Origin: Candidatus Hydrogenedentota bacterium
GTDB lineage: Bacteria > Hydrogenedentota > Hydrogenedentia > Hydrogenedentales > SLHB01
Length of the DNA stretch: 64,000 bases
Assembly: GCA_963674865.2 (NCBI GenBank)
Contig: CAXXYE010000003.1
Coordinates: 26,373 to 90,372 of the forward strand
Direction of reading: 5' to 3'
In this document: one piece after another, positions 7,708-42,879 of the stretch
Numbering within the stretch: the stretch's first letter is position 1
Layout of the letters: each line of letters begins with the position of its first letter
Notes under the pieces: generated by a model
What the model was told of the DNA's origin: nothing
Databases searched by the model: none
Seen by the model: the letters and a program-made list of their open reading frames with translations, nothing else
Program-made: the position numbers and the translations under genes

Positions 7708-7713
7708 TAAACT

Positions 7714-8218: not shown

Positions 8219-8219
8219 C

Positions 8220-12249: not shown

Positions 12250-12274
12250 CTGATGCTTCCCTCGCACATTCTCC

Positions 12275-12303
12275 TTGACGCCAGTCCTAATACGGTGTAA
12301 GAT
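12275..12303 (+). promoter_or_regulatory. Candidate sigma70-type promoter of the tracrRNA
   Basis: TTGACG (12275..12280), 17 nt, TAAGAT (12298..12303). The predicted TSS at ~12310 coincides with the first nucleotide of the anti-repeat. It is divergent from cas9. Confidence 0.55.
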
Positions 12304-12309
12304 AGCCAT

Positions 12310-12430
12310 AGTATACCTGAGCGGCGGTTGTCGGCAAATCATAGTAATGAGGCAATCGTCTCGCAGGGCAACGCTTCACAGCTTCAAGCTGTCAAGCGCC
12401 CTACCGGCCCTCTCTATGGGGGCTTTTTCT
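12310..12430 (+). ncRNA. Predicted tracrRNA
   Basis: 12310..12345 AGTATACCTGAGCGGCGGTTGTCGGCAAATCATAGT pairs with the whole 36-nt repeat: 29 Watson-Crick pairs, 5 G-U pairs and a 2-nt internal mismatch. Then come hairpin GAGGC-aauc-GUCUC (12350..12363), a long interrupted hairpin (12365..12403, core ACAGCT-tca-AGCTGT) and a GGCCC/GGGCT stem followed by TTTTTCTTT. Confidence 0.8.
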
Positions 12431-16184: not shown

Positions 16185-17273
16185 ATGGATTCACCATTTT
16201 CCGTCCAGGCAGCGCCGGATTGGGAGGCCCTTAAGGCCTGCTTGCTCCGCGAAGGGACGCCGAAGCGCGTACACCACATCGAGTTATTTCTCGACGCCGA
16301 GATACAGGACGCGATCTGTGAGCGCTACGGTGTGCTCGATGGGTTGAATCCGGGCGATCCTTACTTCGCCGAGCGGAAGCAGATTGCCCTACAGTCTTTC
16401 CTCGGATACGACTTCATCCGGTGCGGCGTCGAGCGCCTGGAAATGCCGCTCCACTACTGCACGGCGGACGACACGGCTTCGCTGAAGCGGGACGGCGGCC
16501 GCGGCTTCATGAATGAGCACCGGGGGCCCATCACGAACTGGGAGGAGTTTGAGGCATATCCATGGCCCGATCCTTCCTCTGCGTCCGCAAGGGCGCTCGA
16601 GTTCTACGAAGAGAATCTTCCGGAAGGCATGTGCATCATCGGGGGCGGGGGCTTTGCCCATTACGCGGAATATCTAACTTGGCTTATGGGCTACGAGACG
16701 CTTTGCTACGCCCTGTACGAGCAGCGGGATCTCGTCCAGGCTATCGCGGATCGGCTCAATGAGATTTTCCGCGTAGTGCTTGAACAGATGTTATCCTTTG
16801 AATGCGTCAAATTCGTCTGGGGCAGCGACGACATGGGCTTTCGCGGCGGCACGCTGATCAGTCCGGACGACCTGCGCGAGTTTGTGCTTCCCGGACACAA
16901 GCTCATGGCCGCTATGTCGCACGACACGGGACGGCCCTACCTACTCCACGCCTGCGGCAACCTGGCGGCCGTGATGGACGACTTGATCGACGACGTGGGA
17001 ATCGACGCCAAACACTCCTTCGAGGATACGATTGAGGACGTGCGCAACGCCAAGCGCGCCTACGGGCAGCGCATTGCCTTGCTGGGGGGCATCGACGTGG
17101 ACTTCCTGTGCCGCGCGAGCGAGGCCGAGGTGCGGCAGCGCGTGCGCGACACGCTCGACGTGTGCATGCCGGGCGGCGGCTACTGCCTCGGCACCGGCAA
17201 CAGCGTCGCCAACTATATCCCGGTGGACAATTACCTGGCCATGCTCGACGAGGGCCGGAAGCACGCGTCGTAA
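16185..17273 (+). CDS. Uroporphyrinogen-decarboxylase (URO-D) family protein
   Basis: 362 aa. URO-D/MtaA-like layout (FVWGSDDMGFRGGTLISPDDLREFVLP, LLHACGN, DAKHSFED). A candidate promoter TTGAAC-17-TAGATT lies at 16110..16138. Confidence 0.6.
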   Translation: MDSPFSVQAAPDWEALKACLLREGTPKRVHHIELFLDAEIQDAICERYGVLDGLNPGDPYFAERKQIALQSFLGYDFIRCGVERLEMPLHYCTADDTASLKRDGGRGFMNEHRGPITNWEEFEAYPWPDPSSASARALEFYEENLPEGMCIIGGGGFAHYAEYLTWLMGYETLCYALYEQRDLVQAIADRLNEIFRVVLEQMLSFECVKFVWGSDDMGFRGGTLISPDDLREFVLPGHKLMAAMSHDTGRPYLLHACGNLAAVMDDLIDDVGIDAKHSFEDTIEDVRNAKRAYGQRIALLGGIDVDFLCRASEAEVRQRVRDTLDVCMPGGGYCLGTGNSVANYIPVDNYLAMLDEGRKHAS

Positions 17274-17294: not shown

Positions 17295-18731
17295 TTATAC
17301 GAAGGCCTGGCGTCCCTCGCCGCGCGGCCCTACCAAATCCGTCTGCCCCTTACCTCGGACGGCCTGCCGCGCGCCGTCCAGGGAAGGCTTGACGTATTCC
17401 ATGAACCACGCCTCCAGCCGCGCCCGCATTGCCGTCGCGATCTCGGCGTATCGCGCATCGTCCACGAGATTCTCCTCTTCCCGTGGATCCTCCGCGAGGC
17501 AGTAGAGTTCATGCGGGCCGTAGGGATAGCGGTGGATGTATTTCCATTCGCGATCGCGGATCATGCGCACGGGCCCGTACTCGTCGCACACGACCACCGC
17601 CTCATGCCCGCCCTGTCCGGCGCCGCGCAGGACGTGGGCGAAGCTCCGGCCCGGAAGGGGCTCCGTGGCGGGAGCCTCCAGGCCTAGGTAGTCGAGCAGC
17701 GTCGGCATGAAATCGTACTGGCTGAGGAGGTCGGAGTTAACCACACCGGCCGGCACGCGCCCGGGACAACGGGCGATGAAGGGGACTTTCACCGACTCCT
17801 CGAACATGTTCATCGGGAAAGTGCCGTTGCCCTTGCCGCGGATGCCGTGGTGGCCCATATTGAAGCCGTTATCGCTCAGAGAGAAGACAAGCGTGTTATC
17901 GGCGATGCCGAGGGCGTCCAGCTTGTCGAGGATACGGCCGATGGCCGCGTCCATCGCCGTGATCGTCGTGAAATAGCCTTGGATTGTCTCGTGCCGCTCC
18001 TCTGGCGTCGGATCCCATCCGCCCCATGGATGGGGCGGTACGGCGGGCACGGAGGAGAACTCGACATCGGCGTAGGAGCGCCAGATCTCGGGCGGCTGCT
18101 CCTCCTCGCGCCAGGGGGCGTGGGGCGCCGTGTAATGCACGTTCAGGCAGAAGGGCTGCTCGCCGCGGCCGTAGCGATCCAGGAAGGCGATGCCGCGATC
18201 CGTGAAGACGTCGGTGACGTACTCCGTCTGATGCGTCATCTCGGCGCTGCCGTCGAACATAAAGTAGTTGGTATAGCTGTCGCCTCCCAGGGAGTGCGTG
18301 TGCCAGTAGGAGTAACTCTTCTGGGGCGTGCCGCTGGCGCCGAGATGCCACTTGCCGGAGAAGCCGCAGCGGTAGCCGTTTGCGGCCAGCACATCGGTGA
18401 AGGCGGTGAGCCCTTCGAGATACTCGATGGCGCGATCCTTGCCCACGCGCGTCACGCCTTCCGGATCCTCGATGTTGCCGTATTTGAGCCAATCGTGTAC
18501 GCCGTGCTGAGAGGGAATTCGGCCCGTCAAGAAGGAGGCTCGCGCCGGGGAACACACGGGCGATGCGCAGAAAAAGTTGTCGAAGCGCGTCCCCTGCGCC
18601 GCGAGGCTGTCGAGCGTGGGCGTCCTCAATTCCGGCGTGCCCGCGCATCCCATGGCCCACGGCCCCTGATCGTCCGACATGATGATCAGGACGTTGGGCC
18701 GGTTATCTTTCGCTCTTTCATTCATCGACAT
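17295..18731 (-). CDS. Arylsulfatase (formylglycine-dependent, Cys-type)
   Basis: NVLIIMSDDQGPWAMGC plus the CSPARASFLTGR sulfatase signature. The true start MSMNERAK is at 18731 (SD GAAGGGAG). The 694-aa track ORF is an artefactual N-terminal extension. It overlaps the upstream gene's stop by 10 nt. Confidence 0.88.
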   Translation of the reverse strand: MSMNERAKDNRPNVLIIMSDDQGPWAMGCAGTPELRTPTLDSLAAQGTRFDNFFCASPVCSPARASFLTGRIPSQHGVHDWLKYGNIEDPEGVTRVGKDRAIEYLEGLTAFTDVLAANGYRCGFSGKWHLGASGTPQKSYSYWHTHSLGGDSYTNYFMFDGSAEMTHQTEYVTDVFTDRGIAFLDRYGRGEQPFCLNVHYTAPHAPWREEEQPPEIWRSYADVEFSSVPAVPPHPWGGWDPTPEERHETIQGYFTTITAMDAAIGRILDKLDALGIADNTLVFSLSDNGFNMGHHGIRGKGNGTFPMNMFEESVKVPFIARCPGRVPAGVVNSDLLSQYDFMPTLLDYLGLEAPATEPLPGRSFAHVLRGAGQGGHEAVVVCDEYGPVRMIRDREWKYIHRYPYGPHELYCLAEDPREEENLVDDARYAEIATAMRARLEAWFMEYVKPSLDGARQAVRGKGQTDLVGPRGEGRQAFV

Positions 18732-20872
18732 GCTCCCTTCTCCGGCACGTGGCGGTAGCGGCTCAGGATTTCCTCTTGTAGATTCGGCTTGAGCTTGACG
18801 AAATGCGCGCTGAAACCCGTGACGCGTATGACGAGGTCGCGGTGGCGTTCCGGGTGGTCGATGGCGTCCCGAAGCATCTCGGGCGTGGTTGAGTTGATGA
18901 TGACTTGCGTGCCGCCAAGACGGAAAAAGCCGCCGATCAGGCTCAAGAGCGATTCCGCCCCGTCGGCGTTGTCGAACAAGGCCGGCGACACGTCGAGGTG
19001 CAGCGGCGAGGACGCGCCCCGGCCCGGCTGTACCGCCGCCACCGAGCGCGCCATGGCCGTGTAGCCTTGCCGGGCGCAGCCTTCCACGGGATTGGCGCCA
19101 TGGGCGAGAGGTTCCCCCGCCAAGCGGCCGTCGGGCGTGGCCTTTGAGGCGCGTGTCGTGGCGTGGCAGACGTAGCTGTAGAAGCCTGGGAGGATGTGGA
19201 AGCGGCCATCCGGAGGCTGGGCGGTTTGCGCGGCTTTCACGCAGAGGTCCCGCACGCGGCGGGCGATACCATCCGAATGCGCGCCATCGTTCCCGAACTT
19301 CGGTGCCTGTTGCAGGGCCGCGCGCAGCGATGCGTGTTCGGCGAAATTGCCGTCGAGGGCTTGGTGGATCTCGTCCCACGCGTGCGGGCCGCGGCCTTCG
19401 ACAACGGCGTCCAAGGCCGTGAGTGAATCGACCACGTTGGCGAGTCCCATCAGATCGGCGACGAAGTAGTTGTATTCGAGCGCCCCGTCAAACACGTCGC
19501 GAGCTTTCTCGATGGGGCCGTGGCCGAACAGCGATCCGACGAGTTCGGGGAAAGCCCGCCCGGCCTCATCGAGGTGGGCGTTGTAGCAGGCGCCGGCGTA
19601 CTCGAAGGTATGGCCCACTGTTTCCTCGAAGAACTCCCAGAGCCGTTCAAGGCTCGGCTGGCCGCCCTGCATCATGCGATCCCACGCCGCCGACAGCGCG
19701 GCCGCCAGGTTGAGCTTGGTTCCGTCCGCCAAGCCGTAATGCCTGCCCGGCACCGTCCACCAGTGGCAGCCTCCGTAGGCATAGGTGCGCGCCACGGACT
19801 CGGCCATGCCGTTGGCCACGAGGCCCGGCGCTATCGCCGCGTCGTTCACGAGCGTCGGCGTGCCTTCACCCGTCTCTAACAGGCAGCGTGCGGCGAGTTG
19901 CAGAAGGTCCGGGGGCGTCCCTGCGTGGACTCGGAGGCCGATATTTGCAGGGCCGCGAATCTCACGCCATGCCTCGAGGACGAGGTACGAGACACGATTG
20001 GACGCATCGTTCCCCTCGGCGTCCGTTCCCCCGATGCACATGAAGTGCGTGTCGTGAACGAGCAACGCCTTGAGCAGGAAGCGGGCCTGTCTATCATCCA
20101 GCCGGCCCGCGGCGGCGTCCGCCTCGTAGAAGGGATGGAGCAGGAGGTCGATCCGGCCGATGACGTTGGAGCGGTTGTAGGCCCGGTTCAGCGTCATGAA
20201 GAGCGAGAGCCAGATCATGGCCTGCCCAAAAGTCTGAGGCGGGGCCTCCACAACGGCGTCGATGTCGTTGGCCAGTTGAAGCAAGGCTCGCGCTTCTCGG
20301 CCCATTGCCGACTCGGCCAGTTCCCGGGCGTGGACAGCATGCTTTCGGATGAATGCTTGGGCGGCCTCGATGATGGTATCCAGTGCCTGCAGGTAGCGAA
20401 GATCGTCGCCGGCCCGGCTGGCCTGGGCCTGGTGGATGCGGCGCCGGATGCCGCCCCAGCCTTGGGCGAGGCCGATTTCGAGGTCGGGCGCCCAGTGGCC
20501 GGGCATGCCGATGTTCACGTGGCACCCGCGCGCGCCCCACAAGGCATCGCGGTCGATGCCGATCCGCTCATCGTCAAAGGTGGCTTGCTCCAGGAGGTCC
20601 CACAGGACGTATCCGAAGGCGCCGGGGAGGGGATCGTAGGCTTCGACGAACGGCGGCGTGGCTTCCAGCACGGCCGCATACTGCCGCGCCAGGTGAATTG
20701 GACAACGCCGCCCGGAATCGAGGCCATCCTCGATCCGCGGGCGCGGCAATCCGTCCAGAGGACGCCTTCCTGTGTGATCGGTGTTCTCGTTTTCCAGCGC
20801 CCCGGCCCAGGCGGCGCGGCGTTCCAGCAGCTTCTCGCGGCTCTCGGCTAGGTCATAGGGGAAGGCGTTCAT
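18722..20872 (-). CDS. Glycyl-radical-enzyme-like protein (PFL2/glycerol-dehydratase-like family), 716 aa
   Basis: C-terminus GGTQVIINSTTPEMLRDAIDHPERHRDLVIRVTGFSAHFVKLKPNLQEEILSRY matches the GRE glycyl-radical domain (RVxG[YF]). Start MNAFPYDL is at 20872. Confidence 0.65.
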   Translation of the reverse strand: MNAFPYDLAESREKLLERRAAWAGALENENTDHTGRRPLDGLPRPRIEDGLDSGRRCPIHLARQYAAVLEATPPFVEAYDPLPGAFGYVLWDLLEQATFDDERIGIDRDALWGARGCHVNIGMPGHWAPDLEIGLAQGWGGIRRRIHQAQASRAGDDLRYLQALDTIIEAAQAFIRKHAVHARELAESAMGREARALLQLANDIDAVVEAPPQTFGQAMIWLSLFMTLNRAYNRSNVIGRIDLLLHPFYEADAAAGRLDDRQARFLLKALLVHDTHFMCIGGTDAEGNDASNRVSYLVLEAWREIRGPANIGLRVHAGTPPDLLQLAARCLLETGEGTPTLVNDAAIAPGLVANGMAESVARTYAYGGCHWWTVPGRHYGLADGTKLNLAAALSAAWDRMMQGGQPSLERLWEFFEETVGHTFEYAGACYNAHLDEAGRAFPELVGSLFGHGPIEKARDVFDGALEYNYFVADLMGLANVVDSLTALDAVVEGRGPHAWDEIHQALDGNFAEHASLRAALQQAPKFGNDGAHSDGIARRVRDLCVKAAQTAQPPDGRFHILPGFYSYVCHATTRASKATPDGRLAGEPLAHGANPVEGCARQGYTAMARSVAAVQPGRGASSPLHLDVSPALFDNADGAESLLSLIGGFFRLGGTQVIINSTTPEMLRDAIDHPERHRDLVIRVTGFSAHFVKLKPNLQEEILSRYRHVPEKGACR

Positions 20873-20916
20873 GGTTCTTCGCTCACACCGCGGACACGCA
20901 GGAGCGCATCCCTCCC

Positions 20917-21936
20917 TTAGCGCCACCAGTTGGCCCGGAGGTAGTCGATGTAGAACTCGGCGTTCTCCACGGGGACATTGCTCGGGATGTGATTGCCCAC
21001 CGCGAAGATGAAGCCGGGGCAAGGCAGGGCCAGTTCGAGTGTGGCGTCAATCTCGGCCTGGATGTCTTCCTTCGTCCCGAAGGTCATGGTGCGGCAATCC
21101 ACCTTGCTGCCGGCAATCACGTGCGTTTGGCCGTACTTCTCGACGACGGGATCGAGGGCCGTCATCGGCTCGAAGATGAATCCGTGCGCGCCGGCGGCGG
21201 CGATGTCGTCTATAAACTGGGAGTAGGTGCCGTCGCTGCAATACAGGATCCGGATGCCGGCCGCGTGGAGCACGGCCCATAGCTCGGCATAGCGCGGGAA
21301 GATGACGCGCCGGTAAAAGTCCGGGTGCATGAACGGCCCCTGCGTCCACACCATGTCGTCATGGCAGATGAACACCTTGATGGAAGTCTTGGCCCATGCC
21401 TTGATGTGGTGAAGGGTGAGGCGGAAGAAGGAATCGAGAACGTGTTCGAAGCGCTCCTGATCGGCCGCGGCGGCGAGGAGCATGTCCCAGCCGAACGTCT
21501 GGATCGCGCCCGAAACGATGGTTTTGTAATAGCCGCCGGGGAAGATCCAATTGGGATGCGCCGCCTGTGTCTCCCGGTAGGACTTGTCGTAGTAGGCGAT
21601 GAGTTCGTCCGTATCGGGAAGGCCGTATTCCTGTACCGCGTCAAACTCGAGCACCTGCTCCGGATCGGTGAAGGGACTGGGCGTTGGTTGGCGCCGATCT
21701 ACGCCGCCCTCGAGGAACTCGGCGTGGCCCATGTCGGTGACGCGTCCGCGCTCTTCCCAGGGGACGGGGCCGTCGTTGCAGTTCCACGTGAGATCGAATT
21801 CCCAGGCTTCCGGAAAGGAGCGCCCCGTTTCTCTCTCGATCTTGCGTTTAAGGGAGTCGTTGGAGCAGTACTCCGTATGAGCCAGCCGCTCCGTCGGCTT
21901 CAGATTAATCGTGTCCATTCCGATCTGGTAGCTCAT
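20917..21936 (-). CDS. Uroporphyrinogen-decarboxylase (URO-D) family protein
   Basis: 339 aa. ICHDDMVWTQGPFMHPDFYRRVIFPRY ... ILYCSDG ... GFIFEP is a URO-D-like layout. It is the first gene of the apparent URO-D/GRE/sulfatase operon. Confidence 0.6.
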   Translation of the reverse strand: MSYQIGMDTINLKPTERLAHTEYCSNDSLKRKIERETGRSFPEAWEFDLTWNCNDGPVPWEERGRVTDMGHAEFLEGGVDRRQPTPSPFTDPEQVLEFDAVQEYGLPDTDELIAYYDKSYRETQAAHPNWIFPGGYYKTIVSGAIQTFGWDMLLAAAADQERFEHVLDSFFRLTLHHIKAWAKTSIKVFICHDDMVWTQGPFMHPDFYRRVIFPRYAELWAVLHAAGIRILYCSDGTYSQFIDDIAAAGAHGFIFEPMTALDPVVEKYGQTHVIAGSKVDCRTMTFGTKEDIQAEIDATLELALPCPGFIFAVGNHIPSNVPVENAEFYIDYLRANWWR

Positions 21937-22373: not shown

Positions 22374-23465
22374 ATGCACGCCAACTGGATGGATAATTCC
22401 TTGATCAGCACGGACGAGATACAAAGCTGGCTCAGCGAGGAGGAGCCAGCGCGGCTGGAGACGCTCTGGCGGCGGGCGAACGCCGTGCGCCGGGAGTGCG
22501 TGGGCGAGGAGGTCCACCTGCGCGGATTGATCGAGTTCTCGAACTACTGCGCGCGCCAATGCGCCTACTGCGGACTCCGCGCTCCCAACAAGGCCGTGGA
22601 ACGCTATCGCATGACGCAGGATGAGGTGATGGACTGCGCCCGCCAGGCCGTCCGCTACGGCTACGGAACCGTGGTGCTGCAATCAGGCGAAGACTACGGC
22701 ATCACCGGGGAATGGATGGCGGAGGTGATCCGGCGCGTCAAGGCGGAGACGCCGCTGGCCATCACGCTCAGTCTGGGCGAGCGAAGCGACGCCGATCTCC
22801 GCCTCTGGCGGGAGGCCGGGGCGGACAGGTACCTCCTGCGGTTCGAGACGTCCAACAGGCGCTTGTTCGACATCATCCATCCGCCGCGCGCGGGCGAGCA
22901 CTCCGATCGGGTGGCCATCCTACGCACCTTGGCGGAACTCGGCTACGAGGCCGGCAGCGGCGTCATGCTCGGCATTCCCGGACAGACGTATGACGATTTG
23001 GCGAGGGATATCGCGCTGTTTGCCGAACTGGACTTGGACATGATAGGCGTGGGGCCGTTCATCGCCCATCCGGGCACGCCGCTCGGCGAGGCCGGGGCGG
23101 AGGGGCAGGCCCCTGAAGGCGAGCAAGTCCCCAACACCGAGCTGATGACATACAAAGTCGTGGCCCTCACGCGGCTGGCATGTCCCTACACGAACATCCC
23201 GAGCACCACGGCGCTGGCCACCCTCAACCTCGCGACGGGCCGCGAGAAGGGCCTCGAACGCGGCGCGAACGTGGTGATGCCGAATCTCACGCCCCCCAAG
23301 TACCGCCTGCTCTATGAGATCTATCCCTCCAAAGCGTGCATTCACGAGACGGCGGGCGAGTGCCATCGCTGTATGACACGCCGTATCGAATCCATCGGCC
23401 GCACCGTCGGCAAAGGCCGCGGGGACTCGCCCAACAAGCTGCGCAGAATGACGGCGGTGAAGTAG
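22374..23465 (+). CDS. hydE: [FeFe]-hydrogenase maturase HydE (radical SAM, BioB-like)
   Basis: IEFSNYCARQCAYCGLRAPN radical-SAM cluster, VVLQSGEDYG, GADRYLLRFETSN, GSGVMLGIPGQTYDDL and DMIGVGPFIAHPGTPL all follow the HydE pattern. ATG 22374 is chosen because the upstream part of the track ORF merely translates repeat R2. Confidence 0.85.
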   Translation: MHANWMDNSLISTDEIQSWLSEEEPARLETLWRRANAVRRECVGEEVHLRGLIEFSNYCARQCAYCGLRAPNKAVERYRMTQDEVMDCARQAVRYGYGTVVLQSGEDYGITGEWMAEVIRRVKAETPLAITLSLGERSDADLRLWREAGADRYLLRFETSNRRLFDIIHPPRAGEHSDRVAILRTLAELGYEAGSGVMLGIPGQTYDDLARDIALFAELDLDMIGVGPFIAHPGTPLGEAGAEGQAPEGEQVPNTELMTYKVVALTRLACPYTNIPSTTALATLNLATGREKGLERGANVVMPNLTPPKYRLLYEIYPSKACIHETAGECHRCMTRRIESIGRTVGKGRGDSPNKLRRMTAVK

Positions 23466-23492
23466 CCTCGCCTCTCGGCAACCGTGCCGTCC
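23404..23492 (+). repeat. Left copy of an 89-nt direct repeat (hydE 3' end plus 27 nt downstream)
   Basis: It aligns without gaps to 25561..25649. The first 59 nt match at 43/59, and the last 30 nt (TAGCCTCGCCTCTCGGCAACCGTGCCGTCC, 23463..23492) are identical. Confidence 0.9.
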
Positions 23493-23608
23493 CCCATCTA
23501 TTTCCAGAGTCGCGAACGCTATCCAACTCCACTTCTGGCCCTCAACTCACCAATGAGCCAAACAGCGAGTGCGAGAATCTCTGCGAAACTTCTGCAATAC
23601 CATCCCCC

Positions 23609-23757
23609 TTGCCTCCGTGCCATGTCTGCCTTATACTGTGCTATCATCAGGACGCGGAAACTGGCGGCAATAGCCTAACGTCCTGTAAAGAAAGGCTTTA
23701 TGGGAGTTCCGTCGGGGGTCTTATACCGCGATGGCCCGGCCCAGAGGTCTAATAAGG
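23609..23757 (+). promoter_or_regulatory. Conserved upstream module, copy C (promoter P plus E3 core)
   Basis: TTGCCT-17-TATACT (23609..23637) matches 52793..52821 at 26/29. The E3 core CTGTAAAGAAAGGCTTTATGGGAGTTCCGTCGGGGGTCTTATACCGCGATGGCCCGGCCCAGAGG (23683..23757) is homologous to 53029..53098 and 54480..54548. Confidence 0.6.
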
Positions 23758-23792
23758 AAGCCATATGAACGTTGTTCGAGCAAGAGGACTAA

Positions 23793-24581
23793 TGGAATCT
23801 TCATGAACGAGCCTTCCCGCGTTTCTGGGAGATATTCTTCGAGGTCTTCGAAGCCCTGCCCAGGCAGGGCCCCGGCAATCGTGACTGCGCCGTAAGAGCG
23901 CTCCGTTTTTGCGAAGGGCTCCCGCATGCACCGGCAGTCCTCGACCTGGGCTGCGGAGTTGGTGGACAAACCTTGCAGCTCGCCGAACTCACATCGGGCT
24001 TCATCACAGCAATCGACAGCCATGCTCCGAGCATTGAACGTCTCAAGAAGACTCTCGCCGCGCGAGGTCTCTTGCAGCGCGTTCAGGCGCAGGTTGGCGA
24101 CATGGCGCATCTAGAGCTGTTGCCGGAAAGCTTCGACCTTATCTGGTCCGAAGGCGCGCTGTACAACATCGGGATTGGTAACGCCCTGCGCACCTGTCAC
24201 GGCCTGCTGCGGCCCGGTGGCTACCTCGCTTTCACCGACGCGGTCTGGCGCAAGGACGACCCACCACCCGAGGTCAAAGCGATCTTTGAGTACCCGTCCA
24301 TGGGGTGGGCCGATGATATCGTGGCGGCGACACAAGACTGCGGATTCGAGCTGGTTGGGCACTTCACACTTCCTGACGAAGCGTGGTGGGTCGATTTCTA
24401 CACTCCTATGGAGACTCGCATCACGGAGTTGCGTGGCAAGTATGCCGACGATGTTGAAGCCTCAACCATACTCGATCAACTCAGCCAAGAGCCTGAAATG
24501 CATCGCAGATATTCGGACTTCTACGCCTATGAGTTCCTTGTGGCACGTCGTCCCCTTGCGCAATCGGGCGGCCGGGATTAG
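23793..24581 (+). pseudogene. Class I SAM-dependent methyltransferase, start region apparently disrupted
   Basis: Motif I VLDLGCGVGGQT is encoded at 23937..23972, upstream of the TTG picked by the ORF track. The frame is open from 23793 (WNLHERAFPRFWEIFFEVFEALPRQGPG...) but contains no ATG or GTG. The nearby ATG 23803 is in another frame. Confidence 0.55.
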
Positions 24582-24650
24582 TAAAGGACTTGAACAGGGC
24601 GCTCCAGCGGGGCGAAGCCGCTGGACCTCGATCGTTGAGAGGGTGGTAGA

Positions 24651-25544
24651 ATGAAGATCGTCGCGGACTGGCACATCCATTCGCAGAATTCGTGCGATCA
24701 AGCTTGCATGACTCTTGCCGACCTTGTCGCCGAGGCCGACACCAAAGGCATCCGTGATTTGGGCCTTACGGATCATCTGCACACGCCCTACAACCTGCCG
24801 GATGTTGCCAAATCCCGAGCGGAATTCCTCTCTATCGGGCCTTCTCCCCGTTTCCATTTTGGCATCGAAGTAAGCTGTGTGTCGCAGTGGGAGCTTGAGG
24901 AAATAGCACGTGGAGAGTACCAAGATCCCACCTACGGGTTGCGCTCAGGAGGCCGAGCCGGGTGCGAATTGGCCATCGGGATCACGGCGGAACATATCCG
25001 GGCCTATCAGATCGAATATGTCGTTGGCGGCACACACTGGCCCCTGTACGTTCCCATGGAACGCCAAGCCGTCATCCGGGATTATCACCGACAAAACATG
25101 TTTCTGGCGACGCATCCGCTCGTGGATATTGTCGCCCATTCCTGGTGGTGGATGGGACATTGGCAGGACAGCAACGGGGACTACCCGGCCGAGCCCTGGT
25201 TTGACGATTTTGGTGTGATTCCCTGCTCGATGCACAATGAGTTTGCCGCCGCAGCGGCGGAGTCCGGCACGAAGGTGGAAATCAACATTGGGGCCAACCT
25301 CCTCAATCCGCATTATCCCGAGAGGTTTGTCGCCGCATACTTGGAGTACCTGTCAGAACTGCAATCGCAAGGAGTCTGCCTCAGCATCGGTTCGGACTGT
25401 CACTCCGCTCACTATGACGTCGATTTCGACAGGGCCGCTCACATGTTGGAAGGTGCAGGAATCATTGATGACTTCTGGTGTCTTGGGCCGAGAACAAACG
25501 AGAACAGGGCTGCCAAGAAGCCAAATGCACGCGACGGCTCATAG
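24651..25544 (+). CDS. PHP-domain metal-dependent phosphoesterase
   Basis: MKIVADWHIHSQNS ... GLTDHLHTP ... VVGGTHWP ... VAHSWW ... IGSDCHSA is the PHP/histidinol-phosphatase-like His/Asp pattern. GC is lower than in the flanks. Confidence 0.7.
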   Translation: MKIVADWHIHSQNSCDQACMTLADLVAEADTKGIRDLGLTDHLHTPYNLPDVAKSRAEFLSIGPSPRFHFGIEVSCVSQWELEEIARGEYQDPTYGLRSGGRAGCELAIGITAEHIRAYQIEYVVGGTHWPLYVPMERQAVIRDYHRQNMFLATHPLVDIVAHSWWWMGHWQDSNGDYPAEPWFDDFGVIPCSMHNEFAAAAAESGTKVEINIGANLLNPHYPERFVAAYLEYLSELQSQGVCLSIGSDCHSAHYDVDFDRAAHMLEGAGIIDDFWCLGPRTNENRAAKKPNARDGS

Positions 25545-25649
25545 CCGCGCGTGATCCGCGGCGTCGGCAAGGACCGGGGTGATTCCTCCAACAAGCTGCG
25601 AAAAGCGTCGGCCGTCAAATAGCCTCGCCTCTCGGCAACCGTGCCGTCC
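25545..25649 (+). pseudogene. Remnant of a hydE C-terminus plus the right copy of the 30-nt core
   Basis: It starts directly after the PHP gene's stop and reads PRVIRGVGKDRGDSSNKLRKASAVK*, versus the HydE end IGRTVGKGRGDSPNKLRRMTAVK*. The core at 25620..25649 is identical to 23463..23492. Confidence 0.8.
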
Positions 25650-26098
25650 AGGAGTCCTTCGAACTCGCGTCCCAGCGCCTGCGCGACCTTGTTGGCCACG
25701 CGGGGATTGCGCGTTCGCCGGAGGCGAATTGCCGACTGGCAGGGACGTGTCCCGTGGAACGCGGCCGCGTTCAACACAGGCCGAAAGATGCGGCTCGTGC
25801 CGGACGTATCGAATGGCCGAGTGCTTGCCCTCACCGGTGAGGATGGGCGCCAGGGCGCGCCTCGTTGGTTTCCTTGCCGCCGAAGATACCGAGTTGCTTC
25901 AGAATCATGGTTCGGGTTTCTTGTTGTCTTGGGAGTTAGCCCAATGCTGGCCTCGTCTTCGGGGTGTCATGCGAGTTTCACGTTGCGCACTGACGCAGTT
26001 GAAACCGTCAGTCTTGAGATGCAAAACTGGATGCGGCAAGTAGGCCGGGGTTTGCTGCCGTCCCGCAGGACAACGACAGGGGAGGATTTCCTGGACTG

Positions 26099-28318
26099 AT
26101 GGGTGAGGCGAGAAGCGACAAAAAGAAATTCTCTGAAGCCAGTCGACTCTATGCGCAGGGAGAGTATCAGCAGGCACTCATGCTCCTTGAAGAGCTGCGC
26201 GCCGCCTATCCCGGCACGCAGAACATCATGTTTCCCATTGCTCTATGTCTACGAAAGCTCGGCAAGCATCAAGAAGCTGTCCGGCTCTGTAAAGAGCTCG
26301 TCGAGAAGTTTCAGCATTCCAAGGCCAAAGAGCTCAAGCAAGAGATCCTCGCTAACCTCCGCCAACAGCGGAAAACCGCGCCACTCCAAACGGGCTCGCT
26401 CAAGAAGACCCCGAGCAAGCAAGCACGTCACGCAAAGAACGGCAATGAGCCGCGTGATAATGTGCGGCGGCGCGGCGTATTCAAGCTGAAGAGAGAAGAA
26501 CTCATGACGCTTGCAGAGAACGACCCCGATGAAGCAGTGCGGGAGGCTGCGGCGCGGCGTCTGGAGGAGGCATATCCCAAATGGCAGCACCCAAATCCCG
26601 AAGTGCGGCTACAGGCTATTGCCGAACTATGCGACGAAAAGATCCTATCGAACCTCGCACAGGGACACGCTGACGAAGCTGTACGCGAAGCCGCCTCGCA
26701 GCGCCGGGATCAGGTGCGCCAGGAGAATCGGTTGCTCAGCTCGTTTCAAACGTTCAACACATGGAAGCATGAACTCACTTCTGACGAGATCATGTTTGGA
26801 CTCGTGAGGTCCGTGTGTTTGAGCTCTGATGGGCGACTTGTGCTAGCAGCAGGTACGGAAACAGTGAAAGTGTGGAGTGCAGAGACCGGTTCCTTACTCC
26901 GTACGTACGAAGGCCACGCCGGAGAGTCATGCTGTCAGTTGCACTCCGTCAATATCAGCGAGGACGGGCAATGGGTTCTGTCTGGAAGCGCTGGCAGTGT
27001 GCAGCTATGGAACGTCGAAACGGGTGAGTGCACATATACATTCCGCGGCCCCACACCACTGGCAATCGAATCAAGTCACCTGAGCGCGAATGCACAATGG
27101 GCCTTGTCCGGAGGCGTGGATAAGACAGTGAGGATCTGGGAGCCCAAGCACGGTGGACGTAGAAGTACTCTTAAGGGCCACACTGACGGGGTTAACGCCG
27201 TCTGCCTGAGCGCGGATTCCAGATGGGCTCTATCCGGAAGCCTGGACAAGACCGTGCGCCTATGGAATGTGGAGAGCGGCGAGTGCACCCGCATCTTAGA
27301 GGGCTCCACCGGCGGGGTCAGGGCCGTGTGCCTGAGCGCGGACGGACGCCGTGCCCTCTCGGGAGGCGGTGACAGCACCGTGCGGCTCTGGGACCTGGAG
27401 GCGGGCATCCGCATACACACTCTAATAGGCCATACGGGCGACGTGACCAGCGTTTCGATGAGCGCGGACGGACGATGGGCCCTGTCCGGCAGCTCTGAAA
27501 GTAGCGTCCGACTTTGGGATTTGGAGGCCGGCAAGTGTATGCGCACTTTTGAGGAACGTGATTTCAGCGCATACTCCGTTTTCCTCAGCGCAGATGCGCG
27601 GTGGGGAGTGTCCGGTGGCTATGGCGACACCGTGAACCTGTTGAGGCTCGCGCCCCTTACTCTGGGAGAACCGCCACTATCGGAGATTCTCGCCTCTCAC
27701 CCGGGCGCACTCGATGTCGCGAGAGACGCAGAGCCGACTTTGGGGGCGCTCTCTGAACCGCCGAAGAAATCAGCCGAACTTAAGTTCTACGGGCGGTGCT
27801 CTCATAGGGCAGGAGTATGTCCGAAGTGCTGTTTGCACTGCGCCGTTGAGGCCGGCAGTATCAGCGACGTGAGAAGTCTGCTTGCGGCCAACGCAGATCC
27901 CAACCTGCTCTGGGTAGACGGGGGCCCACTGCACTACATATGGCATGGACCGGAATATGGCCCTGACACTCTTGACAGTCTCTTGAGGATCCTCATCGAA
28001 GCCGGTGCGGACATAGAGCAACGCAATTATTACGAGCAGACGCCATTACACCTCGCTGTCGTCAATGGCCGGCTTCCAGTGATCGAGAGACTGCTTGCGA
28101 TGGGGGCTTCCAGAAAGACCACCGACCTTGATGGGAATAATCTGCTCCATTCTGCAGTTCTGTCCGATATCCCCAGATGTCAGCAGAATCGCAGACAGAT
28201 CATCAGTGCTCTCATTGAGTCCGGCGTGAGCACATTGGACTGCAACGCTCGCGGTGAGACTCCGAAGGAACTCGCTAAGTCGAAAGGACGCTCAGGGTCG
28301 GTTGTCAGGATGCTGTGA
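26099..28318 (+). CDS. TPR / HEAT-like / WD40 (about 7 blades) / ankyrin-repeat protein
   Basis: N-terminal TPR-like helices. PBS-lyase HEAT-like repeats (DPDEAVREAAARRL, HADEAVREAASQR). WD40 blades (LSGSLDKTVRLWNVESGEC, LSGGGDSTVRLWDLEAG, LSGSSESSVRLWDLEAGKC). C-terminal ANK repeats (TPLHLAVVNGRLPVIERLLAMGA). GC is clearly lower than in the neighbours. Confidence 0.8.
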   Translation: MGEARSDKKKFSEASRLYAQGEYQQALMLLEELRAAYPGTQNIMFPIALCLRKLGKHQEAVRLCKELVEKFQHSKAKELKQEILANLRQQRKTAPLQTGSLKKTPSKQARHAKNGNEPRDNVRRRGVFKLKREELMTLAENDPDEAVREAAARRLEEAYPKWQHPNPEVRLQAIAELCDEKILSNLAQGHADEAVREAASQRRDQVRQENRLLSSFQTFNTWKHELTSDEIMFGLVRSVCLSSDGRLVLAAGTETVKVWSAETGSLLRTYEGHAGESCCQLHSVNISEDGQWVLSGSAGSVQLWNVETGECTYTFRGPTPLAIESSHLSANAQWALSGGVDKTVRIWEPKHGGRRSTLKGHTDGVNAVCLSADSRWALSGSLDKTVRLWNVESGECTRILEGSTGGVRAVCLSADGRRALSGGGDSTVRLWDLEAGIRIHTLIGHTGDVTSVSMSADGRWALSGSSESSVRLWDLEAGKCMRTFEERDFSAYSVFLSADARWGVSGGYGDTVNLLRLAPLTLGEPPLSEILASHPGALDVARDAEPTLGALSEPPKKSAELKFYGRCSHRAGVCPKCCLHCAVEAGSISDVRSLLAANADPNLLWVDGGPLHYIWHGPEYGPDTLDSLLRILIEAGADIEQRNYYEQTPLHLAVVNGRLPVIERLLAMGASRKTTDLDGNNLLHSAVLSDIPRCQQNRRQIISALIESGVSTLDCNARGETPKELAKSKGRSGSVVRML

Positions 28319-28449: not shown

Positions 28450-29691
28450 TCACGCGTGTTGCCGGTATACCTCGAGGGCGGCGGGGAAGGGTTCGAGGGC
28501 GCGTTCGAAGATGCCGAGGCTGTAGGCGATCACCAAGCCGTAATTCGAGATGGGCACGCCGGCTTGGCGGCAGCGCAGGATGCGGCTGAGCATTTCCCGC
28601 CGGTTGGATGTGCACGCGCCGCAGTGGATCACGAGTTTGTAGGGCGACAGATCCTCCGGGAAGTCGTGGCCCTGCACGTGCTCGAATTCGAGCTTGCCGC
28701 CGACGTATTGCGTGAGCCAGCGGGGGATTTTTACGCGGCCGATGTCGTCGGCGATGGGATGGTGGCTGCAATGCTCCGCGACGAGGACGCGGTCGCCCGT
28801 CTTGAGCTTGTCCACCGCGACCGTGCCCTCGACCTGGGCGGTGAGGTCGCCCCGGAAGCGGGCGAAGAGGATGCTGAAGCTCGTCATGGGGATGTTGGGC
28901 GGCGTGTCGGCGGCCACCTTCAGGAAGGCTTGCGAATCGGTGACGACGAGCTTCGGGGGAACCTTCAGGCGCTCCAGGGCGGCGCGAAGCTCGCGCTCCT
29001 TCACCACCATGCAGAAGGCGTCGCTGTCGAGCAAGTCACGTATGGACTGCACCTGCGGCATGATCAGGCGTCCTTTCGGCGCTTCCTTGTCGATGGGGAC
29101 GACGAGCACGGCCATCTCGCCCGCCCCGACGAGGTCGCCGAGGATGGCGGGGTGGGTGACGAACTCCTCCGGCGCGGCTTCGAGCAGGGCCTGGCGGAAG
29201 TCCAGTATGCCGCGCCCGCTGGGGGCGTTGGTGCGAACCATGCGGACGTTGAGGCCCGTCAGGCGCTCGACGATGCCGGGATTGGGCTCCTGGAGGTCGA
29301 TCTTGTTGAAGACGACGACAATGGGGACATTGCGCGCGGCGAGTTCCTCGAGAATGCCGTCTTCGAAGGGCCCCCAGTGGCCGGCCTCGACGACGATAAC
29401 GCCCAGGTCGGTGCGCTCGAAGACTTGACGCGTGCGATCGACGCGGAGTTCCCCGAGGGCCCCGATGTCATCGATGCCGGCGGTGTCGATGAAGAGCACC
29501 GGGCCGAGCGGCAGGAGTTCCATGGGCTTCTCGACGGGGTCGGTGGTGGTGCCGGCCTGATCGGACACGATCGAGACCTGCTGGCGCGTGATGGCGTTCA
29601 GCAGGCTCGATTTGCCGACGTTCCGGCGTCCGAAGAGGCCGATGTGAAGACGAAAACTCTTGGGGGCCTTCTGCACGATGTCATTCCTCAC
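28450..29691 (-). CDS. hydF: [FeFe]-hydrogenase maturation GTPase HydF
   Basis: P-loop GRRNVGKSSLLNA, DTAGIDD, NKIDL, and the C-terminal cluster motif EHCSHHP ... VIHCGACT. Confidence 0.88.
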   Translation of the reverse strand: MRNDIVQKAPKSFRLHIGLFGRRNVGKSSLLNAITRQQVSIVSDQAGTTTDPVEKPMELLPLGPVLFIDTAGIDDIGALGELRVDRTRQVFERTDLGVIVVEAGHWGPFEDGILEELAARNVPIVVVFNKIDLQEPNPGIVERLTGLNVRMVRTNAPSGRGILDFRQALLEAAPEEFVTHPAILGDLVGAGEMAVLVVPIDKEAPKGRLIMPQVQSIRDLLDSDAFCMVVKERELRAALERLKVPPKLVVTDSQAFLKVAADTPPNIPMTSFSILFARFRGDLTAQVEGTVAVDKLKTGDRVLVAEHCSHHPIADDIGRVKIPRWLTQYVGGKLEFEHVQGHDFPEDLSPYKLVIHCGACTSNRREMLSRILRCRQAGVPISNYGLVIAYSLGIFERALEPFPAALEVYRQHA

Positions 29692-30139: not shown

Positions 30140-31570
30140 TCAATCGGCGGGCGGCACGGGCGGCGTGCCCAGCCGGCAGACGGCCTCGGGACTGATGCGT
30201 TCGTCGAATTGCTCCTCCGTGAGCCATCCTTCGGCCAACACGACCTCCCGGATGGTTTGCCCTGTCCGTTGGGCGGTTTGGGCCACGGCACAGGCCCGCT
30301 CATAGCCTAAGGCGGGCAGCAGCGCCGTGACGGTAGCAGTCGAACCGTCCACATGGGCGCGGCACCGGGCCTCGTCGGCCTCGATGCCCTCGACGCAATG
30401 GACGCGAAGTACATCGCACGCCCGGGCGAGCAGGGCGCAACTGTCGAGCAGGCACGCGGCCACCAGCGGCAGGAACGCGTTGAGTTCAAGATTGCCCGCG
30501 GCGCACGCGGCGGCGATGGTGGCGTCATGGCCCATGACAAGCATGGCCACTTGGCTGACGGCCTCCGGGATCACCGGATTCACCTTCCCCGGCATGATGG
30601 AGGAGCCGGCCTGTTTAGCCGGCAGGCGGATTTCGCCGAGCCCCGCCTCGGGCCCCGAGGAAAGCAGCCGCAGATCCGTGCACACCTTGAGCAGCGACGC
30701 GGCGCAGGCCTTGAGAATGCCGGATACTTCAACGAAGACATCCGCGTTCTGCGTGGCCTCGACGAGATTCTCCGCGCGGGCGAAGCCGATGCCGGTGAGT
30801 TCGCGGAGGGATTCCACCACACGGAAGATGTATTGCCGGGGGGCGGCGAGGCCGGTGCCAATGGCCGTGCCGCCGAGATTGACGACGCGCAGCCGCTCTT
30901 CGCACTTGTAGACGCGCCAGCGATCGCGCGAGAACGCTTCGGCGTAGGCGCCCATCTCGCGTCCGAGCGTGGTGAGCACGGCGTCCTGGAGTTGCGTGCG
31001 GCCGACCTTGACGACGTGGGCGAATTCCTTCTCCTTGGCCTGAAAGGCCTCCTGCAAGGATACGAGGCGCTCTTCGAGCACGTGCAGGAGGCGGATGGCG
31101 GCCAGTTTCAGGGCCGTCGGGAACGTGTCATTCGTCGATTGGTGGCGGTTGACGTCGTCGAGAGGCGAAACACGCTCATACCGGCCGTGCGGTTCCCCGA
31201 GTAGTTCGAGGGCGCGGTTGGCCAGCACCTCGTTGACGTTCATGTTGGTGCTCGTGCCGGCGCCGCCTTGGAGCCTGTCCACGACGACGTGCTCGGTGAG
31301 TCGCCCTTCGGCCATCTCGGCACACGCCCGCACGATGGCGTCGGCCTTGGCGTCGTCGTCTCGCCAGACGCCGAGGGCCTGGTTGGTGAGGGCGCACGCC
31401 TGCTTCACGACGCCATAGGCCGCGACGAGTTCAGGATGCACGGGCCCGGCGCCGAGTGGGAAGTTCTCGAGTGCGCGCGCCGTATGGACGCCGTACATCG
31501 CGTCCTCGGGCACCGGCTTCTCGCCCAGCAGGTCGTGCTCAGTGCGATGGGGCTGGGACATGTAAGGCAA
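30140..31570 (-). CDS. aspA: Aspartate ammonia-lyase (aspartase/fumarase superfamily)
   Basis: GSSIMPGKVNPVIPE signature, TNMNVNEV and HQSTNDTFPTA motifs. 476 aa. Confidence 0.85.
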   Translation of the reverse strand: MPYMSQPHRTEHDLLGEKPVPEDAMYGVHTARALENFPLGAGPVHPELVAAYGVVKQACALTNQALGVWRDDDAKADAIVRACAEMAEGRLTEHVVVDRLQGGAGTSTNMNVNEVLANRALELLGEPHGRYERVSPLDDVNRHQSTNDTFPTALKLAAIRLLHVLEERLVSLQEAFQAKEKEFAHVVKVGRTQLQDAVLTTLGREMGAYAEAFSRDRWRVYKCEERLRVVNLGGTAIGTGLAAPRQYIFRVVESLRELTGIGFARAENLVEATQNADVFVEVSGILKACAASLLKVCTDLRLLSSGPEAGLGEIRLPAKQAGSSIMPGKVNPVIPEAVSQVAMLVMGHDATIAAACAAGNLELNAFLPLVAACLLDSCALLARACDVLRVHCVEGIEADEARCRAHVDGSTATVTALLPALGYERACAVAQTAQRTGQTIREVVLAEGWLTEEQFDERISPEAVCRLGTPPVPPAD

Positions 31571-32028: not shown

Positions 32029-33441
32029 CTAGCAGAAGATGTCCCGCTGGCCTTCGCGAACTCGCTCGAGCAGCTTGCGGGATGTCTCCCGCGGCTTCGC
32101 CTCCATACGGCGGAGCGTCTCCTCGATCAGCCGCTCTCCAACAACTTGCGTCTCCGGGCTGCCGTAGTCGAGCAGGTACTCCTGGAAAGTGGACAGGGCG
32201 TTCGGGTCGCAGTGTTCCTTGATTTTCCCCGGCTTGGCCAAGTCCATGAAGTCCATGCCCGTGCGGCCAAGGCGGTAGCATGCCGTGCAGAACGAGGGAA
32301 TGTAGCCGAGCGAGGCCACGTCTCGGATGACCTCATCGAGAGGCCGGTGGTCGCCAAGTTGGAACTGGCTGCTGTCCTCGACGTCTTCCGCGTAGCCGCC
32401 GGGATTAGTGCGGCTGCCCGCGGAGATCTGGGATACGCCGAGGGCGAAGGTTTCGCGCCGGATGTTGGGCGTTTCGCGCGTGGACATAATGATGCCCGTG
32501 TAAGGTACCGTCAGCCGCAGAATGGCTACGATTTTCCGAAAGTCGATGTCGGAGACGGGCATGGGTGGCTGGCTGGCCAACTGGGCGCCCACCGCAGGTT
32601 CAAGCCGCGGCACGCTGATGGTGTGCGGCCCCACGCCGAAGAGCTTCTCGAGATGGCGGATGTGCTGCATCATGGCGAGGATCTCAAACCGCCAGTCAGC
32701 CAATCCAAACAGCACTCCGATGCCTACGTCGTCAATGCCGGCTTCCATAGCGCGATCCATGGCGGTAACACGCCAGTCGTAATCGGCCTTTTTCCCCGCA
32801 ACGTGGACGCGCTCATAGGTTTCCCGGTGATACGTCTCCTGGAAGAGCTGGTAGGTGCCGATTTCCGCCGCCTTGAGCTGCCGGAATTCCTCGACGCTCA
32901 ACGGCGCGACGTTCACATTGACGCGCCGGATTTCCCCGTGCCCCTTCTTGGTGCCATAGATCGTGCCAACGGTCTTCAGGACGTAGTTGAAGCCCTCTTG
33001 GGGATAGGACTCACCCGCCACGAGCAGGATGCGCTTGTGCCCTTGCTCGATGAGGATGGTGACCTCCCGGGCGATCTCCTCCTGAGTCAGCGCGCGTCGC
33101 TGCACTTCCTTGTTGCGGGCGCGGAAGGCGCAGTAGAGGCACTCGTTGGCGCAGAGATTGGAAATGTATAGAGGCGCGAACAACACGAGGCGCTGCCCGT
33201 AGATCGTCTCCTTTACGTACCGCGCCGCATCAAAGAGTTCGCTGAGGAGTTCGGGATCGCTGATGCCCGTCAGGACGGCCGTCTCCTCCATATCGAGTCC
33301 CTTGAGTTCGCGTGATTTCGCGAGTACCTCGCGAACGCGCGCGGCATCGCGCACGTTTCCGGCTTCGAGGGCTTGGTTGACGCCGGGTTCGTCGATAGGC
33401 ACCGTGCCGTATTCGGATGTCTTCCCGATAGTGGTAGTCAT
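32029..33441 (-). CDS. hydG: [FeFe]-hydrogenase maturase HydG (radical SAM tyrosine lyase, ThiH-like)
   Basis: ISNLCANECLYCAFRARN radical-SAM motif and C-terminal cluster region SFCTACYRLGRTGMDFMDLAKPGKIKEHCDPNA. 470 aa. Its start overlaps the stop of the upstream kinase gene (ATGA). Confidence 0.88.
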   Translation of the reverse strand: MTTTIGKTSEYGTVPIDEPGVNQALEAGNVRDAARVREVLAKSRELKGLDMEETAVLTGISDPELLSELFDAARYVKETIYGQRLVLFAPLYISNLCANECLYCAFRARNKEVQRRALTQEEIAREVTILIEQGHKRILLVAGESYPQEGFNYVLKTVGTIYGTKKGHGEIRRVNVNVAPLSVEEFRQLKAAEIGTYQLFQETYHRETYERVHVAGKKADYDWRVTAMDRAMEAGIDDVGIGVLFGLADWRFEILAMMQHIRHLEKLFGVGPHTISVPRLEPAVGAQLASQPPMPVSDIDFRKIVAILRLTVPYTGIIMSTRETPNIRRETFALGVSQISAGSRTNPGGYAEDVEDSSQFQLGDHRPLDEVIRDVASLGYIPSFCTACYRLGRTGMDFMDLAKPGKIKEHCDPNALSTFQEYLLDYGSPETQVVGERLIEETLRRMEAKPRETSRKLLERVREGQRDIFC

Positions 33442-36924: not shown

Positions 36925-36943
36925 GCTCAACTCCTCGGGCCTG

Positions 36944-38652: not shown

Positions 38653-38656
38653 GCGA

Positions 38657-39037
38657 TCAGCCCTCCTCTTTCTTGAGCAGTGCGGCGACCTTCTCGATCA
38701 GCACGTCGGGTTTGGCGGGCTTCTCGAGGAAATCATCCACGGGAACGACGGACTCGTTCTTGCCGTATTCCATGCCCGTAACCTTCCCGATGCTTGTCAA
38801 CATCAGGATCGGTTTTGTGAAGCCGCCGCGCCGCAGCTCCTGGGCCATGGCAATACCGTCGTCGGGCTGTTCCATCATGACGTCCAAGATCAGCACGTCC
38901 GGTATGGACTCGCTGATCGCCTGCATGCCCGTCTCGCGGCTGCAAGCGGAGGCGATCTCATAACCTTCCTTCTTCAGGAAGAGAGTACACGCCTCCACGA
39001 CATCCGGGTCGTCATCGACAATCAGGACCTTCGCCAT
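38657..39037 (-). CDS. Stand-alone response-regulator receiver domain
   Basis: MAKVLIVDDDPDVVE ... PDVLILDVMM ... receiver-domain Asp pocket. ATG 39037 is preferred over the track start 39115. It is the first gene of the hydCBA operon. Confidence 0.8.
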   Translation of the reverse strand: MAKVLIVDDDPDVVEACTLFLKKEGYEIASACSRETGMQAISESIPDVLILDVMMEQPDDGIAMAQELRRGGFTKPILMLTSIGKVTGMEYGKNESVVPVDDFLEKPAKPDVLIEKVAALLKKEEG

Positions 39038-42878: not shown

Positions 42879-42879
42879 G

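Follow-up and report, generated by a model that had tools for sequence, protein, structure and literature searches.

A short insert bracketed by a diverged repeat of the hydE 3′ end in an uncultured Hydrogenedentota bacterium

The 3′ end of hydE, an [FeFe]-hydrogenase maturase gene of a Candidatus Hydrogenedentota bacterium, occurs twice in the 64-kb stretch of contig CAXXYE010000003.1 that we analysed (the window, to which every count given below as being in the window refers), and the two copies bracket about 2.1 kb of foreign-looking DNA that holds a methyltransferase pseudogene and an intact hydrolase gene of the PHP family. We propose that this insert arose when a molecule with a diverged hydE 3′ end of its own was taken in by a single crossover (Campbell-type insertion) within a 30-bp core starting at the hydE stop codon. 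The reading is tentative, with a probability of roughly 45% that we divide roughly evenly between a tyrosine integrase and RecA as the enzyme involved; the data do not separate site-specific integration from RecA-dependent homologous crossover. The insert is without means of its own to move and, as the frameshift in its methyltransferase gene indicates, is decaying, and it is best filed as an insertion scar in an uncultured anaerobe, either Campbell-type or like a cis-mobilizable element (CIME).

Two diverged hydE tails joined to one identical core

The segment 23399-23492 recurs at 25556-25649 as a gap-free direct repeat of 94 nt that a repeat finder reports at 82% identity and a spacing of 2157. 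It encloses the 89-nt range (23404-23492 and 25561-25649) that had been given in a preliminary description of this DNA, the coordinates and counts of which were right. Identity is distributed unevenly along the repeat: the block that comes from the hydE coding tail is identical at 47 of 64 positions (73%; 43/59 over the shorter range), and the block formed by the stop codon and the following 27 nt is identical at 30 of 30. Mismatches thus number 17/64 in the coding tail and 0/30 in the core (Fisher p = 0.001). Beyond both ends of the repeat, identity in the same register is at the random level, with 16/59 matches in the 59 nt upstream and 17/60 in the 60 nt downstream. The 30-mer core is present in exactly two copies in the window, also when 3 mismatches are allowed, and was matched in 0/100 shuffles; searches of the window with sub-k-mers and low-stringency blastn returned neither a third or weaker copy nor shorter pieces of the core. 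We conclude that the geometry of the repeat is not due to chance or to simple local duplication.

The first of the two tails belongs to a gene that is undamaged and, with 327.8 bits against a cut-off of 254.6 for the NCBIfam model TIGR03956 (rSAM_HydE), qualifies as a bona fide HydE, which we count in favour of Campbell-type insertion. Its C-terminus reads RTVGKGRGDSPNKLRRMTAVK before the stop, and copy 2 translates to RGVGKDRGDSSNKLRKASAVK before its own. Over 21 codons the tails are separated by nine synonymous and eight non-synonymous base differences, the former affecting 9 of ~16 synonymous sites, with the reading frame and the stop codon retained. In an alignment of 120 HydE homologs, the region after GRGDSPN is hypervariable in sequence and length; despite this, hydE and copy 2 have in common a lineage-specific tail, NKLR..AVK followed by the stop. 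These differences, with the frame kept and the tail shared, argue that copy 2 derives from a closely related but distinct hydE and is no fresh duplication. Copy 2 also has Asp at a position where 118/120 homologs have Gly, and is therefore not under HydE selection now.

The drift rate behind a divergence of 27% would predict ~10 differences in 30 nt, and none is observed. Because uniform drift cannot yield 27% divergence beside 30 non-coding bases without a single difference, the block of identity is best ascribed to whatever event created the repeat, or else to a constraint that we do not see. One rival history is an old duplication of the hydE tail in situ (for example, a long target duplication formed on insertion of the cargo), the non-functional right copy of which drifted while selection or gene conversion kept the 30 nt. 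We regard this history as very improbable. The repeat is direct and in the same orientation, as such a duplication would be, copy 2 carries the damaging Gly-to-Asp change, and a dN/dS ratio from 21 codons is too imprecise to exclude that one copy evolved neutrally. However, zero differences in 30 nt beside 27% divergence would arise under uniform drift with a probability of ~1e-4 to 1e-5, the differences at 9 of ~16 synonymous sites point to long separate evolution as coding sequence, and the core yields no Rfam family, tRNA, tmRNA or significant fold and shows no conservation downstream of hydE among 80 relatives.

The pairing of a variable with an invariant stretch, repeated at a gene 3′ end, also bears a superficial likeness to diversity-generating retroelements, and a small promoter-poor cassette with no recombinase of its own recalls integron cassettes and Xer-dependent integrative mobile elements (IMEX); an origin in any of the three is, in our judgement, scarcely credible. 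The mismatches are not adenine-specific, only 4/17 involving A in either copy, and Pfam scans of ~50 open reading frames (ORFs) revealed no reverse transcriptase in the window, so a template repeat/variable repeat pair was rejected. For an integron cassette, IntI was not found in the window and the ends of the cassette have no attC-like imperfect palindrome, the hairpins after its two genes being simple 6-8-bp stems. IMEX are defined by dif-like 28-bp sites with two 11-bp inverted arms, and no dif-like palindrome was found; the core holds only a weak 5-bp inverted repeat or hairpin with a 4-nt spacer (z = -0.9).

Two accessory genes with little of their native flanks

Between the two copies lies an insert of 2,063 nt (23493-25555) with a GC content of 0.571 vs 0.658 for hydE with the core, in agreement with the lower-GC insertion of about 2.1 kb after hydE that had been noticed before. 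It opens with a non-coding leader that has no Pfam match in any reading frame and no Rfam match, and of which the final ~30 nt are the native 5′ flank of the methyltransferase gene, homology to the loci L126 and L127 running from 23773. The gene that follows encodes a class I S-adenosylmethionine-dependent methyltransferase with Pfam Methyltransf_25/11/31 domains. Its homologs, up to 84% identical and from many phyla, begin MNEPSPRFWEIFF, and a DNA alignment with three homologous genes locates a single missing base right after ATGAACGAGCC. The start damage that had been suspected in this gene is hence confirmed and pinned to a 1-nt deletion at codons 4-5. Where the source record has an annotation of just 202 aa (P0248), the gene is in truth full length and frameshifted. 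The deletion sits in a C-rich run, where genuine decay and sequencing error are both possible. Homology with L126 after the gene extends to 24610.

The second gene encodes a PHP-family hydrolase with homologs of 65-79% identity in Lentisphaerae, Planctomycetes, Kiritimatiellae, Poribacteria and other phyla. The encoded protein is full length and ends in a variable C-terminal tail like those of its homologs, so the stop codon of the gene is native. DNA homology with the PHP locus L082, from another genome in which the PHP protein is 79% identical, runs past the stop and through a hairpin to ~25571. The hairpin is conserved at L082 4695-4725 and, on this comparison, is probably the PHP gene's own terminator, carried along. 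The hydE-like fragment begins directly after it, at a CCGC/GGC microhomology. The repeat had been thought to start exactly at the PHP stop codon; this does not hold, as the stop lies at 25542-25544, the repeat starts 12-19 nt later, and the hydE-like fragment only shares the reading frame of the PHP stop. The full length, the native tail and the terminator hairpin rule out that PHP is truncated or was joined to an old hydE by a deletion.

No more than ~30 nt of native flank is left beside each insert gene, and this tight packing, together with the microhomology, fits a small molecule that had picked up a hydE tail in an aberrant excision. The nearest relatives of both cargo genes (79-84% amino-acid identity) are scattered over phyla and gene neighbourhoods that have no relation to one another, as is typical of accessory genes that move horizontally. 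The methyltransferase and PHP genes were never adjacent to each other, nor was either beside hydE, in 44 PHP loci and 3 methyltransferase loci (a methyltransferase gene near PHP in L081 is unrelated to that in the window); we therefore regard them as two unrelated accessory genes that form no conserved module. A defence system was also considered and rejected, PADLOC having given only a generic methyltransferase-domain match.

Table 1. Features of the hydE-hydF interval and its borders (positions in the window).
Feature	Position	Strand	Remarks
hydE, intact [FeFe]-hydrogenase maturase gene, 363 aa	22374..23465	+	stop TAG 23463-23465; GC3 0.854
left repeat copy (attL-like)	23399..23492	+	last 64 nt of hydE coding sequence, then 30-nt core
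left copy of the perfect core, TAGCCTCGCCTCTCGGCAACCGTGCCGTCC	23463..23492	+	proposed crossover region
non-coding insert leader, 310 nt, GC 0.52	23493..23802	+	sigma-70-like site 23609-23637
class I methyltransferase pseudogene	23803..24581	+	ATG 23803; -1 frameshift at codons 4-5 (~23814); otherwise full length
hairpin 3′ of methyltransferase gene, TCCAGCGG-N7-CCGCTGGA	24604..24626	+	read from sequence
PHP-family (histidinol-phosphatase-like) hydrolase gene, intact, 297 aa	24651..25544	+	Pfam PF02811
hairpin GCCGCG-N7-CGCGGC, native 3′ flank of PHP gene	25544..25562	+	abuts hydE-like fragment
right repeat copy (attR-like)	25556..25649	+	hydE-like 3′ fragment (unambiguous from ~25563), in-frame TAG, core 25620-25649
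non-coding right flank	25650..26098	.	no Pfam match in any reading frame
WD40/ankyrin/TPR repeat protein gene, 739 aa	26099..28318	+	Pfam; GC3 0.638, z = -2.5, lowest in window
hydF, convergent with hydE	28450..29691	-	Pfam HydF_tetramer, HydF_dimer, MMR_HSR1; GC3 0.879; other edge of atypical block

Composition and the rearranged hyd locus

The GC content at third codon positions (GC3) sets apart the methyltransferase gene (0.673), the PHP gene (0.658) and the WD40/ankyrin gene beyond the right repeat copy (0.638), which are the three lowest of 39 genes in the window (mean 0.785, sd 0.058), while hydE (0.854) and hydF (0.879) are the two highest. Composition thus speaks for an insert, as had been claimed for the low-GC segment bracketed by the repeat; the part of that claim which does not stand is the match between segment and brackets, because the low-GC3 block continues into the WD40/ankyrin gene. 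With low-GC3 genes on both sides of the right repeat copy, the atypical block comprises 23493-28318, and the repeat brackets its left 2.1 kb only. The WD40/ankyrin protein contains five 126-nt WD40 units (27079-27643) and has weak PADLOC matches to repeat-domain models.

The surroundings are unusual in gene order as well. In the window, the minus strand carries hydG (32029-33441), a Lyase_1/aspartase-like gene (30140-31570) and hydF, the last of these convergent with hydE. In relatives (~50 loci) the maturase genes are co-directional, in the order hydE-hydG-(aspartase-like lyase)-hydF or lyase-hydF-hydE. Judged by gene order and composition, the hyd locus has undergone rearrangement, with foreign DNA taken up in the hydE-hydF interval, which we flag as a 4.8-kb landing zone for such DNA.

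A single crossover and the alternatives to it

The anatomy of the repeat, the foreign composition, the intact state of one cargo gene and the decayed state of the other, and the absence of a recombinase from the window are direct observations. From them we infer that the intermediate was circular, where the crossover took place and that the event was an insertion and not a replacement. A foreign DNA molecule of ~2.16 kb, most simply a circle, would have undergone one recombination event with the chromosome, within the 30 bp from the hydE stop onward. This molecule would have comprised the 310-nt leader, the methyltransferase gene, the PHP gene with its terminator hairpin, the last ~60 nt of a diverged hydE and the 30-bp core. 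The crossover would have spared hydE and placed the cargo directly after it, so that the left copy would consist of the host arm and the core, and the right copy of the incoming molecule's arm and the core. Two tail alleles, each joined to the same perfect 30 nt and lying around foreign DNA, are what a single reciprocal crossover within a short shared core produces. The hydE-like arm lies flush with the PHP terminator at a microhomology, which suggests that it was once captured by aberrant excision from a related hydE locus. As for the enzyme, a tyrosine-type integrase may have acted in trans or have since been lost, which would leave a CIME-like remnant, or RecA may have acted on the 30-bp identity, possibly with heteroduplex conversion that made the block perfect.

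Several results weigh against this proposal. Neither the insert with its non-coding flanks nor the rest of the 64-kb window yielded an integrase, excisionase or transposase. This bears out the earlier remark that no integrase or transposase was visible, with which the Pfam scans of ~50 ORFs agree. Six-frame pieces of the insert's non-coding flanks, searched for a decayed integrase, have no Pfam match, and the longest minus-strand reading frame of the right flank has 0 homologs among 1.84 billion representative proteins. Two checks suggested by the preliminary description also came out negative: no further copies of the core were found in the window, in Joint Genome Institute (JGI) metagenome contigs or in IMG/VR, and no recombinase that could pair with it was found in the 64-kb window. 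A 24-mer query from the core had 0 matches in the JGI metagenome contigs and the IMG/VR viral contigs, and the core itself was not found to have the convincing symmetry or structure of a recombinase site. Collections of plasmids, phages and viruses held no match to the insert, and 0/76 related hydE loci contain a repeat of their own hydE tail, so the end of hydE is no common integration hotspot. An empty site could not be found either, because the closest HydE is 73% identical at the amino-acid level among 5.8 billion proteins (~70% in 185k GTDB representative genomes). The atypical-GC3 block runs 2.7 kb past the right repeat copy, such that not all of the foreign-looking DNA is bracketed. Lastly, the proposal does not by itself account for a diverged donor that shares 30 perfect non-coding bases, which needs either identity imposed by a recombinase or heteroduplex conversion. 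The designation of the segment as an integrated mobile element is consequently borne out in part: the geometry resembling attachment (att) sites is real and the composition is foreign, but no recombinase is in the window, the core has no third copy in the window and no match in the metagenome and viral collections, and the cargo forms no module.

An alternative that we consider unlikely is homology-facilitated illegitimate recombination, or replacement of the hydE allele. Here, linear DNA of a related donor, carrying hydE, the core, the methyltransferase gene and the PHP gene, would have been anchored by homology in hydE, and its far end joined illegitimately at a CCGC microhomology, ~60 nt before the recipient's stop, so that copy 1 (perhaps with much of hydE) would come from the donor and copy 2 would be the displaced native tail of the recipient. 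Such a history needs no recombinase, matching the absence of recombinases, and a microhomology junction does lie exactly where the PHP hairpin meets the hydE-like fragment. Copy 2 has the Asp at the near-invariant Gly position, as expected of a displaced, unselected remnant, and the convergent arrangement of hydE and hydF, unlike that of relatives, could mean that hydE was re-acquired. Replacement, however, offers no mechanistic reason for 30/30 shared non-coding bases beside 27% diverged coding sequence, and the GC3 of hydE is host-like (0.854) vs 0.66-0.67 for cargo on what would be the same donor fragment.

The exact length of the core raises the matter of assembly. The DNA comes from a 421-kb contig assembled from a metagenome, the identity spans exactly 30 nt and ends abruptly, an overlap of 30 nt equals k-1 for k = 31, and the methyltransferase frameshift in its C-run could likewise be a sequencing error. 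The contig might thus have had another molecule threaded into it at a shared 30-mer, be it a free circle of 2.16 kb or part of another strain's DNA. We consider such an artefact improbable: common metagenome assemblers finish above k = 31, and the junction of PHP hairpin, hydE-like fragment and core must still exist on a real molecule, which would move the question to a free attP-like form. A free form is also part of a further possibility, to which we give less credence still, that the insert is an active recombinase-less cassette that alternates between a circle and the 30-bp site after hydE by means of a recombinase of the host or one acting in trans from a distance; the contig may then reflect co-existing integrated and circular forms. 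If true, this would make it the smallest sort of site-specific hitch-hiker, akin to IMEX or integron cassettes, with a new target, the hydE 3′ untranslated region, in an uncultured lineage.

Comparison with known systems

Campbell-type insertion of a circle by host homologous recombination, as when plasmids or translocatable units integrate, resembles the hydE arrangement in that one crossover duplicates the shared segment into direct repeats on either side of the insert and no enzyme encoded by the element is needed. The homology in such insertions is usually longer and more uniform, and the origin of a 2.16-kb circle with a hydE tail is hypothetical. For efficient RecA-dependent exchange, an identity of 30 bp is close to the shortest that suffices.

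In Streptococcus thermophilus, CIMEs occur at the 3′ end of fda. Their definition is given in a review (PMC5704250). Like a CIME, the hydE insert is short, is located at the 3′ end of a protein-coding gene, contains no integrase or transfer genes and consists of accessory cargo, holding only the methyltransferase pseudogene and the PHP gene; as in CIME accretion arrays, neighbouring DNA, here the WD40 gene, is also compositionally foreign. The flanking repeats of a CIME are matched in geometry only, by a 94-nt repeat with a 30-nt perfect core that is a candidate for a recombinase substrate. The two differ in that neither an autonomous relative (an integrative and conjugative or integrative and mobilizable element) nor an integrase that uses this att-like site is known for the hydE insert, and there is no third att copy; the 64-kb window holds no recombinase, the core is absent from metagenome and viral contigs, and the insert has no match among plasmids and phages. 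Furthermore, the perfect block lies wholly downstream of the stop codon, so that a gene tail borne by the element is not needed to restore the gene, and mobility is putative here, in an uncultured lineage far from Firmicutes.

The prophages e14 and phage 21 of Escherichia coli use the 3′ end of icd as their integration site, and a displaced tail of the gene that differs slightly (icdC) is found at their far end. As in hydE, two non-identical gene 3′ ends in direct orientation flank foreign DNA and the target gene is functional. The icd prophages, in contrast, are 15-40 kb long, have an integrase beside the att site and cross over inside the coding sequence, and the hydE insert is 2.1 kb long and recombinase-less. 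A prophage, integrative and conjugative element or genomic island with a tyrosine integrase was rejected for the hydE insert, as no integrase gene is adjacent to either att-like site.

Pseudo-SCC elements (SCC, staphylococcal cassette chromosome), located at the 3′ end of rlmH (orfX) in staphylococci, are bounded by integration-site repeats and are without ccr recombinase genes. Both they and the hydE insert are recombinase-less cassettes bounded by repeats of the target gene's terminal part. SCC repeats, however, are ~15-18 nt long and are recognised by Ccr serine recombinases, whereas no cognate recombinase is known for the hydE core.

Other features of the window

A complete type II CRISPR-Cas locus is present at 6945-12342, with cas9 (9103-12342), cas1 (8220-9110) and cas2 (7874-8302) all on the minus strand. 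Its array contains 12 repeats of 36 nt with a period of 66, the adjacent third and fourth spacers being identical. No spacer of this Cas9 array matches the insert behind hydE, and none matches anything else in the window.

A separate low-GC3 patch at 53121-56268 holds an XhoI-family restriction endonuclease gene (54618-55355) and an N6/N4 DNA methyltransferase gene (to 56268), preceded by a 348-aa ORF (53121-54167) for which no Pfam, NCBIfam or PADLOC match was obtained. This patch is probably another horizontally acquired island.

The window also encodes an electron-bifurcating-type [FeFe] hydrogenase with HydA (34993-36978), NuoF-like (36944-38188) and NuoE-like (38131-38652) subunits. Adjoining it, in a region that with the hydrogenase spans 34993-49494, are Wood-Ljungdahl and heterodisulfide reductase (Hdr)-like genes, including those for formyltetrahydrofolate synthetase (FTHFS, 39594-41384), a CCG-domain protein, MvhD and methylenetetrahydrofolate reductase (MTHFR), as well as a 1497-aa multi-flavin/FeS oxidoreductase. 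Taken at face value, this gene content suggests an H2-metabolising anaerobe. Elsewhere, two URO-D-family genes (16185-17273 and 20917-21936) flank genes for a sulfatase and a glycyl-radical enzyme resembling pyruvate formate-lyase (18722-21022). In L082, a URO-D-family gene lies directly 3′ of the closest PHP homolog, and is dissimilar to the copies in the window.

Implications

The insert does not open any long-standing question, and its cargo, a generic methyltransferase and a hydrolase of the PHP family, hints at no special function. If the proposed single-crossover insertion is right, the locus would be a clean, small example of how a conserved gene of housekeeping type can have accessory genes slotted in behind it without being harmed, in an anaerobic lineage of which little is known. 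It would also mean that integrase-less, att-flanked remnants, described mainly in Firmicutes, occur in this lineage too.

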